Positions 6,177 through 38,979 of a stretch of 38,979 bases of DNA are shown in pieces (position 1 is the first letter of the stretch; each line of letters opens with the position of its first letter). The stretch lies in the sequence record NC_031937.1; one strand, written 5' to 3'. The DNA is from Escherichia phage LM33_P1. The position numbers were made by a program, and so were the translations under genes. The notes under the pieces were generated by a model, which saw only the letters and a list, made by a program, of their open reading frames with translations, was not told the origin of the DNA and searched no databases.

Positions 6177-6215
6177 GACTCAAGGTCATGACTCAAAGTC
6201 GTGGCCTTCATGATT
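6177..6215 (+). promoter_or_regulatory. RNase III-type processing hairpin (AAGGTCA/TGGCCTT, G-U containing)
   Basis: Conserved box AGACTCAAGGTCAT...GTGGCCTTCATGATTA, also at 13110 and 35902. Confidence 0.5.
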
Positions 6216-6249
6216 AACCCTAAATAAACACTACTGGAGATTTAACCGT

Positions 6250-8899: not shown

Positions 8900-8917
8900 A
8901 CTATCACTGTAGGACAG
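8895..8917 (+). promoter_or_regulatory. Phage RNAP promoter variant (CTAAACTATCACTGTAGGACAG)
   Basis: Consensus match with TG at -3/-2. Confidence 0.6.
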
Positions 8918-13109: not shown

Positions 13110-13145
13110 GACTCAAGGTCATTCACATAGAGTGGCCTTTATGAT
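13110..13145 (+). promoter_or_regulatory. RNase III-type processing hairpin (AAGGTCA/TGGCCTT) upstream of gene 5
   Basis: Second copy of box AGACTCAAGGTCAT...GTGGCCTTTATGATTA. Confidence 0.5.
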
Positions 13146-13167
13146 TAGACTAAACGGAGGATTAACC

Positions 13168-22427: not shown

Positions 22428-22430
22428 TTG

Positions 22431-22470
22431 AAACCCCTTGGGTGCCTTCGGGTGCTTGAGGGGTTTTTTT
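22431..22470 (+). terminator. T-phi-like terminator for phage RNAP (G-U-rich hairpin plus T7 tract)
   Basis: AACCCCTTGGGTGCCTTCGGGTGCTTGAGGGGTTTTTTTG closely resembles T7 T-phi. Confidence 0.85.
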
Positions 22471-22485
22471 GCTTAAGGAGGGACT

Positions 22486-25747: not shown

Positions 25748-25771
25748 CTTATTGAAGGGCCTATAGATTTA

Positions 25772-25794
25772 CCTTAACTATCACTATAGGGACT
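25772..25794 (+). promoter_or_regulatory. Phage RNAP promoter (CCTTAACTATCACTATAGGGACT)
   Basis: Consensus match; position equivalent to T7 phi13. Confidence 0.75.
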
Positions 25795-25823
25795 ATAGGC
25801 CCTTAAGGTTATAAGGAGACTTT

Positions 25824-26877: not shown

Positions 26878-29160
26878 ATGGCTAGTAATATTGAATCAGC
26901 TCTGGCTAATCGGACTATGGGTCGTGGCAGGGCTCCGGGTAAAACTATCGCCGTCAACTATCAAGCAGCCAGCGTTCAGGCTCCTACTGGTGACTCCGGT
27001 CTGGCTCGTGCGTTAACCAACTTCGTTGAGTCTGGGACAGGATTGTACAAGCAGTTCAAGGACGAGGAGAAGACACGGGCCGACGAGCGGTCTAACGAGA
27101 TTATCCGTAAACTGACACCTCAGCAAAGACGTGAGGCTATCCAGAACGGTACATTGCTGTATCAGGATGACCCTTACGCTATGGAAGCACTTCGAGTCAA
27201 GACGGGCCGTAACGCTGCCTTTGCGGTTGATGACGAGATTAACGTTAAGATTCAGAACGGTGAGTTCCGTACACGTCAGGACATGGAAGAGTATCGCCAC
27301 CAGAGACTTCAGGACGCCGCTAAGTCCTATGCTGAAGAGGCTGGTATTAACCCTACCGACGAGTTCTTCCAGCGCGGGTTCAACGATAACATCACAGACC
27401 GAAACATCGCTATCTATGGGTCTTTCAATAAGTATTTCAGCAAGCAGTCTGAAGAGACAGCAATGTTGAACACTCGTATTGAGATGAACTCGTTCCTTAA
27501 CGATGGGGACCTGATGCGTTCGCCTGAGTCTGGAAAGACCTTCATGGCCTACCTTCGGGATGGACTGACGACTGCTGCTATCCCTTCGGACCAGCGAGCA
27601 CGAGAGGTAATCACCCAGACTGTCCGTGACGCAATCCAGAAGTCAGGAGGCTCAAACTTCCTACAGCAAGTCCGTGGCGAGCGTATCACCCTTAACGGTG
27701 TGGACGCTACAGTCGAAGAGATTGTAGGCCCTGACGTCTTCAATGCTGCTGTGGTTGAGGCTCAAGGTACCGAGTACAAGTTGGTGGCTAAGTATCAGGA
27801 AGACTTATCGTTAGGCGTTCAGTCTGCGATTCTTCAGGACGACCCAACCATCGGTCTGGACCAGATTCAGAAACTCAAGGAGCAGAACAACCTGCTTCAG
27901 CCGGGTGAAGAACTCACGCCTCAGCGTCAGATGCTTATTAATGCCGAAGCCAGCTTACTGGAAGCGGTCAAGCGTAAGTCCGCTGAACAGGCGAAGGAGA
28001 ACACTAAGTTAATCCAGACCCAGAACAAGCAACTAGTCATAGACCAAGTGTATCAGCGACGTCTGGCTGGGGACAACGTGTCCACCAACTATGAGGACCT
28101 TCCGGTCTCAGATGCTACAGGAGAGTTCAAACGTTCAGACATGAACAACTATGCGTCTGCCAAGCTACAGCAGATTGACCAGATGGACATCCCTGAGGCT
28201 GCTAAGGACGCCCAGAAGGTGGCATTGTTAAGGGCTGACACTAACAACGGTCCGTTCCGTAATGCCTTCCAGACGCTTACTCAGGACGCTGCTGGTGAGT
28301 GGCAAGCTGCGGTCATCCGTGGACAGTACGACCCAGACAAGATGAAACGCTTCGAGTCTCTTCGTCGTGCCTACACTCAGGACCCTTCAAGTTTCGCTGC
28401 TCTGTATCCTGACCAAGCTCAGTTGTTCTCTACGTTCGACCAGATGGACAAGATGGGTCTGGACCCTCAGACGATGATTGAAGCTGATAAGCAAGCTGCA
28501 AGTCAAAGCCGTGAGATGCGCATGGAGTCAGACAAGGCGTGGCAGGAGTTGAAGAACGACTCTCGGAATAAGGACCTTTCGCGTCTTCCTACGTCTCTGG
28601 ACGCAAGTGCTCGTAAGGTCTGGGACTCATGGTACTATCGTACAGGTAACGCTGACGCTGCAACTCAGCAGACTCAACGCTGGCTGAATGAGAACACCGT
28701 AACGTTCCAGTCTGATGGTTCTGATGGTAAGTCCATCGGCATGGTGTCCAAGCACCAGCTTATGGTCGGGGATAACCCAGAGTCGTGGCAGGTGGGTCGA
28801 GACATTATCGACACCGCTCGTAAGCAGCTCATTAAGGACAACCCTTGGGTAGTGAACTCTCAGTTGTCCGTTGTTGAACAGAACGGCTCTATCTTCCTCC
28901 AAGACGCTACGGGGACTATTCGTATTCGATACGATAAAGAACTTGTAGGTAAACTCTACCGCGAACAACAGCAGAAGGTACAAGATGCCGCATATGCTCA
29001 GGCAGAACGTGACGCTAACAAGCGAGCGCGTATCGTCGGGACTAAAGCTGCTGGTGACAAACGTCGAGCTGACCGAGAGGCCAACATCGAGAAGAGCGGT
29101 GGGATGTACAATGACGTCTCACTGGAGGGTATCGCAAACGTACTAATTGGTAAGGAGTAA
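26878..29160 (+). CDS. 15: Internal virion protein C
   Basis: Size (760 aa) and synteny with T7 gp15. Confidence 0.85.
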   Translation: MASNIESALANRTMGRGRAPGKTIAVNYQAASVQAPTGDSGLARALTNFVESGTGLYKQFKDEEKTRADERSNEIIRKLTPQQRREAIQNGTLLYQDDPYAMEALRVKTGRNAAFAVDDEINVKIQNGEFRTRQDMEEYRHQRLQDAAKSYAEEAGINPTDEFFQRGFNDNITDRNIAIYGSFNKYFSKQSEETAMLNTRIEMNSFLNDGDLMRSPESGKTFMAYLRDGLTTAAIPSDQRAREVITQTVRDAIQKSGGSNFLQQVRGERITLNGVDATVEEIVGPDVFNAAVVEAQGTEYKLVAKYQEDLSLGVQSAILQDDPTIGLDQIQKLKEQNNLLQPGEELTPQRQMLINAEASLLEAVKRKSAEQAKENTKLIQTQNKQLVIDQVYQRRLAGDNVSTNYEDLPVSDATGEFKRSDMNNYASAKLQQIDQMDIPEAAKDAQKVALLRADTNNGPFRNAFQTLTQDAAGEWQAAVIRGQYDPDKMKRFESLRRAYTQDPSSFAALYPDQAQLFSTFDQMDKMGLDPQTMIEADKQAASQSREMRMESDKAWQELKNDSRNKDLSRLPTSLDASARKVWDSWYYRTGNADAATQQTQRWLNENTVTFQSDGSDGKSIGMVSKHQLMVGDNPESWQVGRDIIDTARKQLIKDNPWVVNSQLSVVEQNGSIFLQDATGTIRIRYDKELVGKLYREQQQKVQDAAYAQAERDANKRARIVGTKAAGDKRRADREANIEKSGGMYNDVSLEGIANVLIGKE

Positions 29161-35901: not shown

Positions 35902-35935
35902 AGACTCAAGGTCATCGTCAGGTGGCCTTTATGGT
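35902..35935 (+). promoter_or_regulatory. RNase III-type processing hairpin (AAGGTCA/TGGCCTT) upstream of gene 18.5
   Basis: Third copy of box TAGACTCAAGGTCAT...GGTGGCCTTTATGGTTA; position matches T7 R18.5. Confidence 0.5.
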
Positions 35936-35992
35936 TAACACTGACTAGTGGAGGCGACTCTACGTTAAATCTGATAAACCGGGAGGGCAACT

Positions 35993-36442
35993 ATGCTCGA
36001 ATTTTTAAAGAGAGCGGCTCCGTGGTTACTTGCAGCAGTGATGTTTGCTGGTGGCTACCACACCGCTAACAATAAGTGGGAGGCTAAGGTCAATGCAGAA
36101 TACACCTCGAATCTTAAGGCATCGGAAGATACAAGGCTTGCTGTCCAAGCTGAAGTCAACAAAGTGTCCAAACGGTTTCAGGACGAAATGTCCTCGCTGG
36201 AAGGCAGCACTGATAGGATTATTGCTGACCTTCAGTCTGACAATAAGCGGTTGCGCATCCGAGTCAAACCAACGAGTGGAACCACGCAAAGTGACGGTCG
36301 ATGCTTCATTGATGGTTACGCCGAACTTGACGAACGAGATGCTAAACGTCTTATCGCCATCGGAGTGAAAGGAGACAAGTGGATTAAGGCCCTTCAAGAC
36401 ACTGTGAGAGCCTTACAGCAAGAGAAGGAGGTGACGCATTGA
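35993..36442 (+). CDS. 18.5: Rz-like i-spanin
   Basis: Similarity to T7 gp18.5 (MLEFL....PW.LA...[30 protein letters not shown]...GD.WI.ALQDT.R.LQ). Confidence 0.8.
36093..36368 (+). CDS. 18.7: Rz1-like o-spanin lipoprotein embedded in +1 frame within Rz
   Basis: Embedded ORF encodes signal-like [15 protein letters not shown] with lipobox-like ISGC and C-terminal ..MV.PNLT.EMLNV; start codon uncertain. Confidence 0.55.
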   Translation: MQNTPRILRHRKIQGLLSKLKSTKCPNGFRTKCPRWKAALIGLLLTFSLTISGCASESNQRVEPRKVTVDASLMVTPNLTNEMLNVLSPSE

Positions 36443-38202
36443 GTAAAGACTTAGTGGCGCGTCAGGCGCTAATGACTGCACGTATGAAGTCAGACTTCGT
36501 GTTCTTCCTGTTCGTCCTGTGGAAAGCTCTGTCGCTCCCAGTCCCGACTCGCTGTCAGATTGACATGGCGAAGAAACTATCGGCTGGGGACAACAGGCGC
36601 TTCATCCTACAGGCGTTCCGTGGTATAGGGAAGTCCTTCATTACGTGTGCCTTCGTTGTCTGGAAGCTATGGAACAACCCAGACTTGAAGTTCATGATTG
36701 TGTCGGCCTCAAAGGAGCGAGCCGATGCTAACTCCATCTTCATCAAGCGAATCATCGACCTCATGCCTCAGCTTCAGGAACTCAAACCTAAGCAGGGACA
36801 GCGAGATGCGGTTATTAGCTTCGACGTGGGACCTGCCAAGCCAGACCACTCACCTTCGGTTAAGTCCGTTGGTATCACTGGTCAGTTGACTGGTAGTCGT
36901 GCTGACATCCTGATTGCCGATGACGTGGAGGTTCCGAACAACTCAGCGACTCAGGCTGCACGAGACCGTCTATCAGAGCTTGTGAAAGAGTTCGACGCTA
37001 TCCTGAAGCCGGGAGGTACGATCATCTATCTGGGTACTCCTCAGAACGAGATGACCCTGTACCGTGAGCTGGAAGGTCGTGGGTACACCACTACTATCTG
37101 GCCCGCTCGTTATCCACGCGACAGGAAGGACTGGCAGTCTTACGGCGACCGTCTGGCTCCTATGCTTCAGGAAGAGCTGGAAGAGGACCCTGAGTCCTTC
37201 TACTGGCGTCCGACTGATGAAGTACGCTTCGATGATACGGACCTGAAGGAACGTGAGCTGTCCTACGGTAAAGCTGGCTTCGCTCTACAGTTCATGCTTA
37301 ACCCGAACCTGAGTGATGCCGAGAAGTACCCTCTTAAGCTCCGTGACCTTATCGTAGCCGACTTGGACCCAGCGTCCAGCCCAATGGTCTACCAATGGTT
37401 GCCGAACCCTCAGAACAAGCGTGAGGACGTTCCTAACGTTGGACTCATGGGTGACTCGTACCACACGTATCAGACTGTAGGTTCTGCCTTCAGCTCATAC
37501 ACCCAGAAGATTCTGGTCATTGACCCTAGTGGTCGTGGTAAGGATGAAACTGGATATGCGGTACTGTACCAGCTCAACGGCTACATCTTCGCTATGGAAG
37601 TTGGTGGCATGCGTGGTGGTTATGAAGACTCTACGCTGGAAGCCTTGGCTAAGATTGGTCGTAAGTGGAGGGTCAACGAATACGTCATTGAGGGTAACTT
37701 CGGTGATGGTATGTACCTTGAGTTATTCAAGCCTGTAGCTGCCCGTATCCATCCTGCTGCTGTAACTGAAGTGAAGAGTAAGGGTCAGAAAGAACTCCGC
37801 ATCTGTGACGTTCTGGAGCCTATCATGGGGTCTCACAGACTTATCGTTAACGCTGCCGCTATCGTCCAAGACTACCAGTCAGCCTCTGATAAGGATGGTG
37901 TTCGTAACCCTATCTACTCTCTCTTCTACCAGATGACTCGTATCTCTCGTGAACGTGGAGCATTGGCACATGATGACCGACTTGATGCGCTGGCTATCGG
38001 TGTACAGTTCTTCGTTGAGTCGATGGCTAAGGATGCCAACAAAGGCGAACGTGAAGTCACTGAGGAGTGGCTGGAGGAACAGATGGAGAACCCACGGAAA
38101 GGCTTCGAGTCCATCCACACTGAGTTCTGGGACAATGGGGTCCGGGTAACTCACGATACGGACGACGAGCTTGGACTAGGGTCATACGTTACGTTCCACT
38201 AG
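36439..38202 (+). CDS. 19: Terminase large subunit
   Basis: Extensive similarity to T7 gp19 ([83 protein letters not shown]); apparent TTG start 5 nt after AAGGAGGTGA. Confidence 0.93.
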
Positions 38203-38212
38203 CTGAATGAAT

Positions 38213-38260
38213 AACTATAGGTGAAAGCTGCATTAATAAGCAGCTAGTAACCTATAGTTA
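38213..38260. repeat. Nested palindrome (outer 10-bp AACTATAGGT/ACCTATAGTT, inner 6-bp AGCTGC/GCAGCT) after terminase gene
   Basis: Perfect inverted repeats read directly; arms contain promoter-core-like ACTATAGG. Confidence 0.7.
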
Positions 38261-38296
38261 CTACCAGTCTAACATACTGTTTTACAAGGAGTTTGG

Positions 38297-38319
38297 ACTT
38301 AACTATCACTATAGGGAAG
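38297..38319 (+). promoter_or_regulatory. Phage RNAP promoter (GACTTAACTATCACTATAGGGAAG), right-end promoter analogous to T7 phiOR
   Basis: Consensus match. Confidence 0.7.
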
Positions 38320-38499
38320 ACCCCCGGTTACTTATAGTATTACTATAGTGAATATACATATGCAGACTTTATGCAAGACCTTAGGAGGCAGACTCCGAGT
38401 TCTTACCTAAGGCTTGCACCGATGGAAGGAGGGTGATATTAATCATAATCCCTCCAATACAGATAGTCACCGACCATAGATACAGGAGGTATGTAGCAT

Positions 38500-38658
38500 A
38501 TGGCAAAGACCAAAGCTGTACTTAAAGCTCTGGCGACCAATCGAGCTACATACAGGTTTCTTACTGCTGTTCTACTTGCTGCTGGCGTTACTGCTGGAAG
38601 TCAGTGGGTCGGGTGGGTCGAGACTCTCGTATGTTCTCTGGTCTCTCAGTGTAATTAA
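38500..38658 (+). CDS. Small hydrophobic protein (52 aa) in the gene 19.5 position
   Basis: ATG 9 nt after AGGAGGT; below the ORF-track cutoff. Confidence 0.4.
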   Translation: MAKTKAVLKALATNRATYRFLTAVLLAAGVTAGSQWVGWVETLVCSLVSQCN

Positions 38659-38694
38659 CGCAATCATGATAACAATCAACGAAAGGAGGTAGGG

Positions 38695-38763
38695 ATGGAC
38701 GAGGAGTCTTATGGGTCGTTCTCTGACGAAGATTATCAGACGGAGTGGGAATACGCGCATTGA
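38695..38763 (+). CDS. Possible acidic mini-protein (22 aa)
   Basis: ATG 5 nt after AAAGGAGGT; MDEESYGSFSDEDYQTEWEYAH. Confidence 0.25.
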   Translation: MDEESYGSFSDEDYQTEWEYAH

Positions 38764-38767
38764 AGAC

Positions 38768-38935
38768 CTAAGGTCAGTTCATAGCTGACGCTACTCTACT
38801 GACCTTAGCTACTGTAGTCAAGGACTTTAGGTAACACCTTAAGAGAAGCTCACTTAGGGTCATCCTACTTATTGGTCTATCCTAGTGTCGCCTGACCTAC
38901 GGTCCTTGACCTACAGTGGCTGTGGCCTACAGTAG
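38768..38935. repeat. Right-end region with 10-bp inverted repeat (CTAAGGTCAG/CTGACCTTAG) and CCTACAGT/CCTACGGT direct repeats
   Basis: Same CCTACAGT motif as the left-end array; window ends ...CATCTCACAC resembling the T7 terminal-repeat start TCTCACAG. Confidence 0.5.
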
Positions 38936-38979
38936 TGACGATGAGTTTTGGACAAAAAGTTTGAGACCACATCTCACAC

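Follow-up and report, generated by a model that had tools for sequence, protein, structure and literature searches.

Phage T7 has polycistronic messages of unusual stability that are processed by RNase III, and in Escherichia coli operons differential decay is shaped by RNA structure (PMC6938266). The RNase III signals of T7 (R0.3, R0.5, R1.1, R4.7, R18.5 and others), intercistronic plus-strand hairpins composed of two stems and an asymmetric loop, give these phage messages a folded 3' end. At the genome's right end, T7, T3, phiYeO3-12 and K11-like phages carry a short stem (UUAUGCA...UGCAUAA) directly past the stop codon of gene 19 and about 100 nucleotides (nt) before the promoter phiOR. Here we describe the hairpin found at this same position in Escherichia phage LM33_P1 (sequence record NC_031937.1), at 38212–38260 of the 38,979-nt stretch of DNA that we analysed (hereafter the window). 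The hairpin is real, conserved, of the RNA type and so far unannotated; it belongs to the known class of 3' stem-loops of phage messages, and its invariant sarcin-ricin-like internal loop is unusual.

Location and architecture of the hairpin

LM33_P1 (Kayfunavirus, T7 group) has a T7-like genome in which genes and phage promoters are all on the plus strand, and its last 1080 bases match Kayfunavirus LM33P1 at 100% identity and many K1F-like coliphages at 95–99%. The hairpin begins 9 nt past the gene 19 stop codon and finishes 36 nt ahead of phiOR. This agrees with an earlier reading made from the DNA letters only (hereafter the sequence-only reading), which had placed a nested perfect palindrome between the terminase gene and the right-end promoter. 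The palindrome itself is real, with inner arms AGCTGC/GCAGCT, but its outer arms measure 11 rather than 10 nt and its two spacers are unequal (GAA and AGTA), which leaves a 3x4 internal loop on folding and makes the palindrome imperfect as a whole. The features of the locus are the following:

36439–38202, plus strand: gene 19 (terminase large subunit), from the open reading frame (ORF) list, with its TAG stop codon at 38200–38202; annotated as gp19 or terminase large subunit in K1F, Vec13 and EcoDS1
38212–38222, plus strand: lower stem, 5' arm TAACTATAGGT, which holds the promoter-core look-alike ACTATAGG; diversity 0.209, about that of third codon positions
38223–38225, plus strand: internal loop, 5' side GAA; invariant among 20 Kayfunavirus sequences (diversity 0.0), and also present in Berlinvirus
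38226–38231, plus strand: upper stem, 5' arm AGCTGC; pair types in relatives C-G/G-C, G-C/G.U/A-U and C-G/A-U
38232–38239, plus strand: apical loop ATTAATAA; ATGAATAC, ATGAATAA or ATAGGTAA in relatives, with A1, U2 and A7 invariant in the alignment
38240–38245, plus strand: upper stem, 3' arm GCAGCT, pairing with 38226–38231
38246–38249, plus strand: internal loop, 3' side AGTA (AGUA in RNA); diversity 0.0, matching with GAA the sarcin-ricin / bulged-G consensus
38250–38260, plus strand: lower stem, 3' arm ACCTATAGTTA, pairing with 38212–38222
38297–38319, plus strand: phiOR-type promoter ACTTAACTATCACTATAGGGAAG, 34.7 bits, annotated as phiOR in EcoDS1; a downstream neighbour outside the hairpin

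The hairpin is thus built of a lower stem of 11 base pairs (bp) and an upper stem of 6 bp (17 bp in all), with an asymmetric 3x4 internal loop between them and an apical loop of 8 nt. Folded as RNA it reaches -24.2 kcal/mol (z = -4.76), which 0/200 shuffles matched. Perfect inverted repeats with arms of 11 nt or more and loops no longer than 40 nt number 3 in the genome, which exceeds chance (0.28 expected from dinucleotide shuffles, maximum 2 in 100). At one inner pair, LM33_P1 alone of 21 aligned sequences has G-C, where most relatives have G.T; perfect inner arms are peculiar to LM33_P1. A mini-ORF at 38207–38224 (ATG AAT AAC TAT AGG TGA) was rejected, being without a ribosome-binding site.

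Stems covary and the internal loop is invariant

Sequences following gene 19 were gathered from IMG/VR contigs and GenBank phages. Each main Kayfunavirus lineage has a similarly built hairpin in this place, with 101–104 nt between the stop codon and the phiOR core, and the element occurs at the same position in at least 184 Kayfunavirus records and in 52 Berlinvirus records (e.g., 285P, FE44 and Kvp1). It is unmarked in the annotations that we inspected (K1F, Vec13, EcoDS1, 285P, FE44, T3 and phiYeO3-12), Rfam 15 covariance models gave no match up to E = 10 in 37900–38979, and a literature search returned nothing specific on RNase III sites or hairpins near gene 19. A search for an E. coli origin or mimicry gave no match among 5,426 E. 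coli genomes.

Covariation was assessed on an alignment of 21 distinct sequences. Pairing in register was seen in 85.7% of cells, compared with 25–45% when the partners were slid; double changes were found in 9 of the 17 pairs, and the observed covariation score was reached by 0/500 shuffles. RNAalifold recovered both helices independently. More specifically, pair 11/45 changes from A-U to G-C with G.U intermediates and, in the upper stem, pair 20/35 changes from C-G to G-C, pair 23/32 is C-G, A.G or A-U in different phages, and a third pair alternates between G-C, G.U and A-U. The Pisces type has TAACTATGGGT / ACCCATAGTTA as its stem, changed on both sides, and Vec13 and EcoDS1 have the G.U intermediates. 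The lower stem is wholly replaced in the SFP21A type (ACCTACGCA / TGCGTTAGGT; arms ATACCTACGCA / TGCGTTAGGTAT) and again in the Berlinvirus phages 285P, FE44 and Kvp1 (GTATGCGG / CCGCTAC).

Diversity was computed on 20 distinct Kayfunavirus sequences:

gene 19, third codon positions: 0.20
four stem strands of the hairpin: 0.15–0.21
spacer to phiOR: 0.20
phiOR: 0.008
GAA and AGUA of the internal loop: 0.0

GAA and AGUA are thus as conserved as phiOR; at the rate of third codon positions, the chance that 7/7 loop sites are invariant is 0.0016. The same seven loop bases are found in Berlinvirus, even though the aligned C-terminal terminase segment is only about 56% identical. Since the stems vary at the third-position rate and the loop is invariant, the stems are constrained only to pair, and the internal loop is constrained in its sequence. 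As read from the alignment, such a combination of drifting stems and invariant loop typifies structured RNA motifs.

A scan for GAA/AGUA loops with at least 4 bp on each side returned only 38212–38260 in the genome, compared with 0.07 expected, and neither this loop-motif scan nor covariance model R1 found a second copy in the window. No convincing match came from the same scans of T7, T3 and phiYeO3-12 and of about 70 distant T7-like loci. Pattern matches outside T7-like phages were discarded as chance, some being antisense within a ribonucleotide-reductase-like ORF (L111, L112, L115 and L117) and others being without a lower stem (L133, L136, L138 and L139). We also rejected a general post-terminase hairpin in the wider T7 supergroup, for which the mean was -17.5 kcal/mol compared with -17.0 in coding controls.

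The internal loop probably folds as a sarcin-ricin module

AGUA standing opposite GAA characterises internal loops of the sarcin-ricin kind (bulged-G, loop E type). In the hairpin, GAA (38223–38225) stands opposite AGUA (38246–38249) between two helices, and the polarity is the correct one for the motif. A kink-turn reading of the loop was rejected on its asymmetry, which is wrong at 3x4, and a UAA/GAN reading, presumably possible, is a less exact fit. Sarcin-ricin loops are recurrent structured motifs (PMC13085918, PMC8450098), of which AGUA is typical (PMC13085918). The pair adjoining AGUA/GAA in the hairpin is usually U-A, with A.A in the SFP21A type, G.A in MBBL139 and U.U in the Pisces type. 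The tolerance of A.A and G.A at this neighbouring position is shared with sarcin-ricin motifs, in which both are allowed sheared-type combinations; the usual U-A is a difference, being ambiguous at the sheared-pair position (PMC8450098). The invariant GAA/AGUA loop probably folds as a sarcin-ricin (bulged-G) module. The motif is known mainly from ribosomal RNA, RNase P, viroids and some regulatory RNAs, and the present candidate lies in the 3' hairpin of a phage messenger RNA.

A role as RNA is favoured over one as DNA

Wobble cells across the relatives amount to 30 G.U (G.T) on the plus strand as against 7 A.C, and a covariance model made from the alignment gives 79 bits for the plus strand and 12.8 bits for the minus strand. 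Folded as DNA, both strands of LM33_P1 and K1F reach z = -4.4 to -6.0, with Berlinvirus being marginal (z = -1.4 to -1.6). Taking the strand evidence with a loop motif of the RNA type and with transcription that runs rightward throughout, we consider an RNA role more likely than a DNA role.

A putative 3'-end element of the gene 19 message

Our preferred reading, which we put forward tentatively, is that the hairpin works as plus-strand RNA at the point where the gene 19 message has its 3' end, and would protect that message against 3' exonucleases, its structured loop keeping the helix stable yet split into parts too short for RNase III. More specifically, late transcripts of the phage RNA polymerase would run through gene 19, and the transcript would fold into the 17-bp irregular hairpin nine nt past the gene 19 stop codon, which would mark and shield the 3' end of the message. 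Downstream ends could come from run-off, from a pause site near the terminal repeat or from endonuclease cuts; host 3'-to-5' exonucleases would degrade the RNA from these ends and stall at the hairpin base. The sarcin-ricin module would keep the helix stacked and stable and would divide it into lengths of 11 bp and 6 bp, neither of which suffices for RNase III to cut both strands. The GAA/AGUA loop could, in addition, offer a protein-binding surface. What is known of T7 messages is consistent with a stability role and is no test of that role.

A proposed barrier to 3' exonucleases that stabilises the upstream message is also the point of likeness to the 3' stabiliser hairpins of bacterial operons (REP-like or terminator-derived), from which the LM33_P1 hairpin differs in being phage-specific, single-copy and endowed with an invariant structured internal loop. 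Within the T7 group, the short stem of T7, T3, phiYeO3-12 and K11-like phages shares with the hairpin not only its position but also the UGCAU start of the apical part, and is probably its homologous core. It differs in having 6–8 bp, no lower stem and no GAA/AGUA loop, and is missed by the covariance model.

A natural replacement of the element bears on how specific its role would be. HNH homing-endonuclease-like ORFs lie between gene 19 and phiOR in three relatives (IMG/VR contigs L013, L014 and L015). The insertion in L013, just after gene 19, took out the left half of the hairpin, and a new 9-bp hairpin (GGTAGTTAC / GTGACTACC), built with the retained right flank, is found past the new last stop codon. 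A plain hairpin can take its place, which suits a generic 3'-end role more than a specific interaction of an essential kind. Having a hairpin where the last reading frame ends is thus favoured, not indispensable.

Several points weigh against the 3'-end reading. Plus-strand folding energy is the better one in 15/25 variants, which is not significant (p = 0.12), and the minus-strand or DNA hairpin folds about equally well in LM33_P1 and K1F. The sarcin-ricin fold is deduced from sequence alone, and the adjoining U-A could be a plain Watson-Crick pair. A simple exonuclease barrier needs no seven invariant loop bases, and something more specific may be recognised. The L018/L026 type is without GAA/AGUA, and T7, T3 and K11-like phages have only the short stem of 6–8 bp at the gene 19/phiOR spot. 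Finally, the HNH-insertion lineages L014 and L015 have no comparable hairpin, and the element is thus dispensable.

Comparison with RNase III sites and terminators

The architecture of the hairpin (11 bp, 3x4 loop and 6 bp, about two helical turns) is of the RNase III type. For T7, we used ten coordinates of RNase III sites from the T7 literature; the folds at these coordinates are mostly hairpins sharing CUCAAGGUC...GGCCUUUAUGAUU. This shared sequence is absent from the LM33_P1 hairpin, which differs from the T7 signals also in its 6-bp upper stem and its GAA/AGUA loop. It is present at three other places in the genome, within hairpins of the RNase III consensus GACTCAAGGTC...GGCCTT(T/C)ATG(A/G)TTA:

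about 6179–6225: RNase III-consensus hairpin
about 13112–13155: RNase III-consensus hairpin
about 35905–35950: RNase III-consensus hairpin

From their sequence these three are probable RNase III sites. The one at about 35905 lies upstream of where gene 19 starts, and its location agrees with R18.5.

Class I (Tphi-type) terminators consist of a stable stem-loop with a U-run directly 3' of the stem, and class II pause or termination signals have ATCTGTT on the non-template strand. The genome has a class I terminator of its own:

22429–22475: Tphi-type class I terminator GAAACCCCUUGGGUGCCUUCGGGUGCUUGAGGGGUUUUUUUG, a GC-rich stem followed by U7

Like Tphi, the hairpin at 38212–38260 is a stable stem-loop past a late gene on the transcribed strand, with the folding energy and z given above. 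Unlike Tphi, it has an AT-rich lower stem and no U-run, its 3' flank being CUACCAGUCUAAC. A terminator scan gave no terminator-like site in 37000–38979, and a classical terminator was rejected. No class II ATCTGTT is found near the hairpin; TACTGTTTT at 38275–38283, 15 nt 3' of it, agrees with ATCTGTT at 5/7 positions and is a single occurrence, not enriched. This TACTGTTTT is conserved in the main Kayfunavirus clade.

The promoter-like cores in the arms

The sequence-only reading had noted the promoter core in both arms, and the initiation core ACTATAGG is indeed present as an exact 8-mer in each of them (plus strand, 38214; minus strand, 38258). We built a weight matrix from the 9 real promoters of the genome, which are near-identical, (A/C)CT(A/T)A(A/G)CTATCACTATAGG, and score 33–38 bits on their own matrix. 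Weaker promoter variants with altered cores lie at 8906 (CACTGTAGG, 29.2 bits) and 11047 (CACCGTAGG, 20.3 bits). The hairpin arms score -3.0 and -14.5 bits, their likeness being limited to the -6..+2 core. The polymerase-binding region at -17..-7 (CCTAAACTATC) is unmatched, with -12.4 bits for the left arm and -25.6 bits for the right arm compared with +18.6 bits for phiOR.

Genome-wide, ACTATAGG has 13 copies compared with 1.09 expected. Nine of these are the real promoters, the copy at 25792 abuts the promoter at 25783, and the two arm copies are mutually dependent; the independent extra copies are therefore 2 (439 and the hairpin), not significantly more than 1.09. The one at 439 is a core-only match (TTGACTATAGGTCC) at the site of T7 phiOL, without the upstream binding region. 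In close relatives the left arm reads ACTATGGG, ATTATAGG or ACTATTGG and the right arm CCTATGGT; the core match is also lost in relatives with ACCTACGC or GTATGCGG, and the arms of distant relatives are quite different. On this comparison of sequences, the promoter-core likeness of the arms is incidental.

Promoter cores paired with an inverted copy occur elsewhere. At 25755–25804, a perfect 12-nt inverted repeat (AAGGGCCTATAG / CTATAGGCCCTT) surrounds the promoter at 25783 and contains tandem ACTATAGG at 25783 and 25792; its RNA fold reaches -23 kcal/mol (z = -3.6). It resembles the R13 hairpin of T7, where the promoter core pairs with an upstream inverted copy, and is a possible target of RNase III in transcripts that read through. 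The phiOR core TCACTATAG (38306–38314) has a perfect inverted copy, CTATAGTGA, 28 nt downstream at 38343–38351; in most relatives the latter reads CTGTAGTGA, and the fold with the phiOR core is not significant (z = -0.2). A weak promoter-like site of 10.4 bits lies at 38342. R13 and the hairpins at 25755–25804 and 38306–38351 share with the element the CTATAG(G) initiation core in the arms; they enclose or include a real promoter, whereas 38212–38260 is without a promoter and its core-like sequence is unconserved.

Position relative to the terminal repeat

The last 8 bases of the window (38972–38979), TCTCACAC, are those with which the terminal repeat begins in the Vec13 annotation (TCTCACAG...). 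The record thus contains one copy of the repeat, opened 8 nt inside it, and the unique right end is at about 38971, with the hairpin about 710 nt to its left. At about 191–206, CTCTATCTGTATAACC is like the concatemer-junction pause site of T7. Two further inverted repeats were observed in this region. A nested palindrome at 38428–38455 (GGAGGG TGAT ATTA ATCA TAAT CCCTCC; RNA z = -2.0) lies just upstream of a gene 19.5-like ORF (38500–38658), and T7 has the inverted repeat GGTGATTATATTGTATTAGTATCACC at the corresponding place. At 38768–38808, in an array of short repeats to the left of the terminal repeat, an inverted repeat with perfect 11-nt arms (CTAAGGTCAGT / ACTGACCTTAG) folds with -20.5 kcal/mol (z = -3.5).

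Alternative explanations

The element could act as DNA, in the form of a hairpin or cruciform in single-stranded or supercoiled molecules, in replication from a phiOR-associated origin or in concatemer processing or packaging. T7 endonuclease I cuts extruded cruciforms, which we count against such a role, as we do the linear genome, the plus-strand G.T wobbles of the relatives, which on the minus strand are A.C mismatches, and the marginal DNA hairpin of Berlinvirus. The element is, moreover, upstream of phiOR and about 710 nt from the terminal repeat, and its loop matches an RNA motif. A DNA role would fit the near-perfect palindrome, which folds as DNA on both strands in LM33_P1 and K1F, and the right-end location, T7-group packaging specificity mapping to within 5% of the genome termini (PMC3276506). 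On balance we consider it very unlikely, and the cruciform for concatemer processing or packaging envisaged by the sequence-only reading is disfavoured. That reading had also offered a bidirectional pseudo-promoter titrating RNA polymerase, to which a decayed duplicated promoter without present function may be added. The presence of ACTATAGG in both arms and the participation of real promoter cores in the hairpins at 25755–25804 and 38306–38351 speak for this idea; the negative scores of both arms, overall and over -17..-7, speak against it, as does the loss of the core in relatives that keep the pairing and the internal loop (ACTATGGG, ATTATAGG, ACTATTGG and ACCTACGC). We find it extremely improbable.

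Among roles in RNA, the hairpin might be a site for RNase III or another endonuclease that parts the gene 19 message from the phiOR / gene 19.5 RNA, as R1.1, R18.5 and others do in T7, and that leaves the hairpin at the new 3' end. The build of lower stem, asymmetric internal loop and upper stem with about 20 bp-equivalents is that of T7 sites, the hairpin lies in an intercistronic spacer, and non-consensus T7 sites pair a promoter core with its inverted copy (R13 hairpin, T7 27233–27280), for which 25755–25804 is the analogue here. This explanation is possible though unlikely, as the hairpin is without the GACTCAAGGTC...GGCCTT(T/C)ATG(A/G)TTA of the genome's canonical sites, its upper stem has 6 bp compared with 9–12 bp in T7 sites, total helix length varies among relatives (about 12 bp in L025 and 6–8 bp in T7 and T3), and the curated records that we inspected (T3, phiYeO3-12 and EcoDS1) mark no site here. 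A signal at which the phage RNA polymerase pauses or terminates, so that fewer late-gene transcripts would continue into phiOR and on to the end of the genome, seems to us quite unlikely: a stable hairpin does stand directly past the last long late gene with the partial class II core TACTGTTTT downstream, but there is no U-run, the scan of 37000–38979 is empty, the lower stem is AT-rich where the Tphi-like terminator has a GC-rich stem and U7, and TACTGTTTT agrees only in part and is not enriched. Of the late-transcript terminator suggested from the sequence, the classical type is thus set aside, while a role at the 3' end of the late message, in stability or processing, stays the best reading. 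The internal and apical loops could instead form a platform for a specific protein or for the ribosome, controlling terminase expression or linking transcription and packaging near phiOR, a region in which the DNA packaging of T7 and T3 is already known to draw on transcription. Seven loop bases invariant beside stems that drift at the neutral rate, an apical loop that keeps A1, U2 and A7, the single copy per genome, the identical core in two genera with diverged terminases and the recurrence of sarcin-ricin loops as structured motifs all argue for such a platform. No candidate partner has been identified, however, and the plain hairpin without the loop in L013 and the loss of the element in L014 and L015 fit an essential specific interaction poorly; we judge the platform unlikely. 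A related and similarly speculative proposal, also unlikely in our estimate, is that the hairpin is the founding member of an undescribed Kayfunavirus/Berlinvirus family of cis-acting RNAs whose loops dock a phage or host protein or the ribosome, e.g., for control of terminase synthesis or for tethering of transcript and polymerase near phiOR.

Significance for T7-group phages

T7-group phages are the textbook model of phage gene expression, and phages of Kayfunavirus and Berlinvirus are under development for therapy (LM33_P1 and K1F). The region from gene 19 to the terminal repeat is where transcription, replication and packaging meet, and only a promoter and the repeat are annotated there. 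For annotation and phage engineering, the 49 nt of the hairpin are not to be taken as free spacer, and the promoter look-alike can be ignored. A conserved structured RNA with an invariant non-Watson-Crick loop represents a concrete and easily mutated handle on how the last late message ends or is stabilised, and on whether RNA has a part in the events near phiOR.

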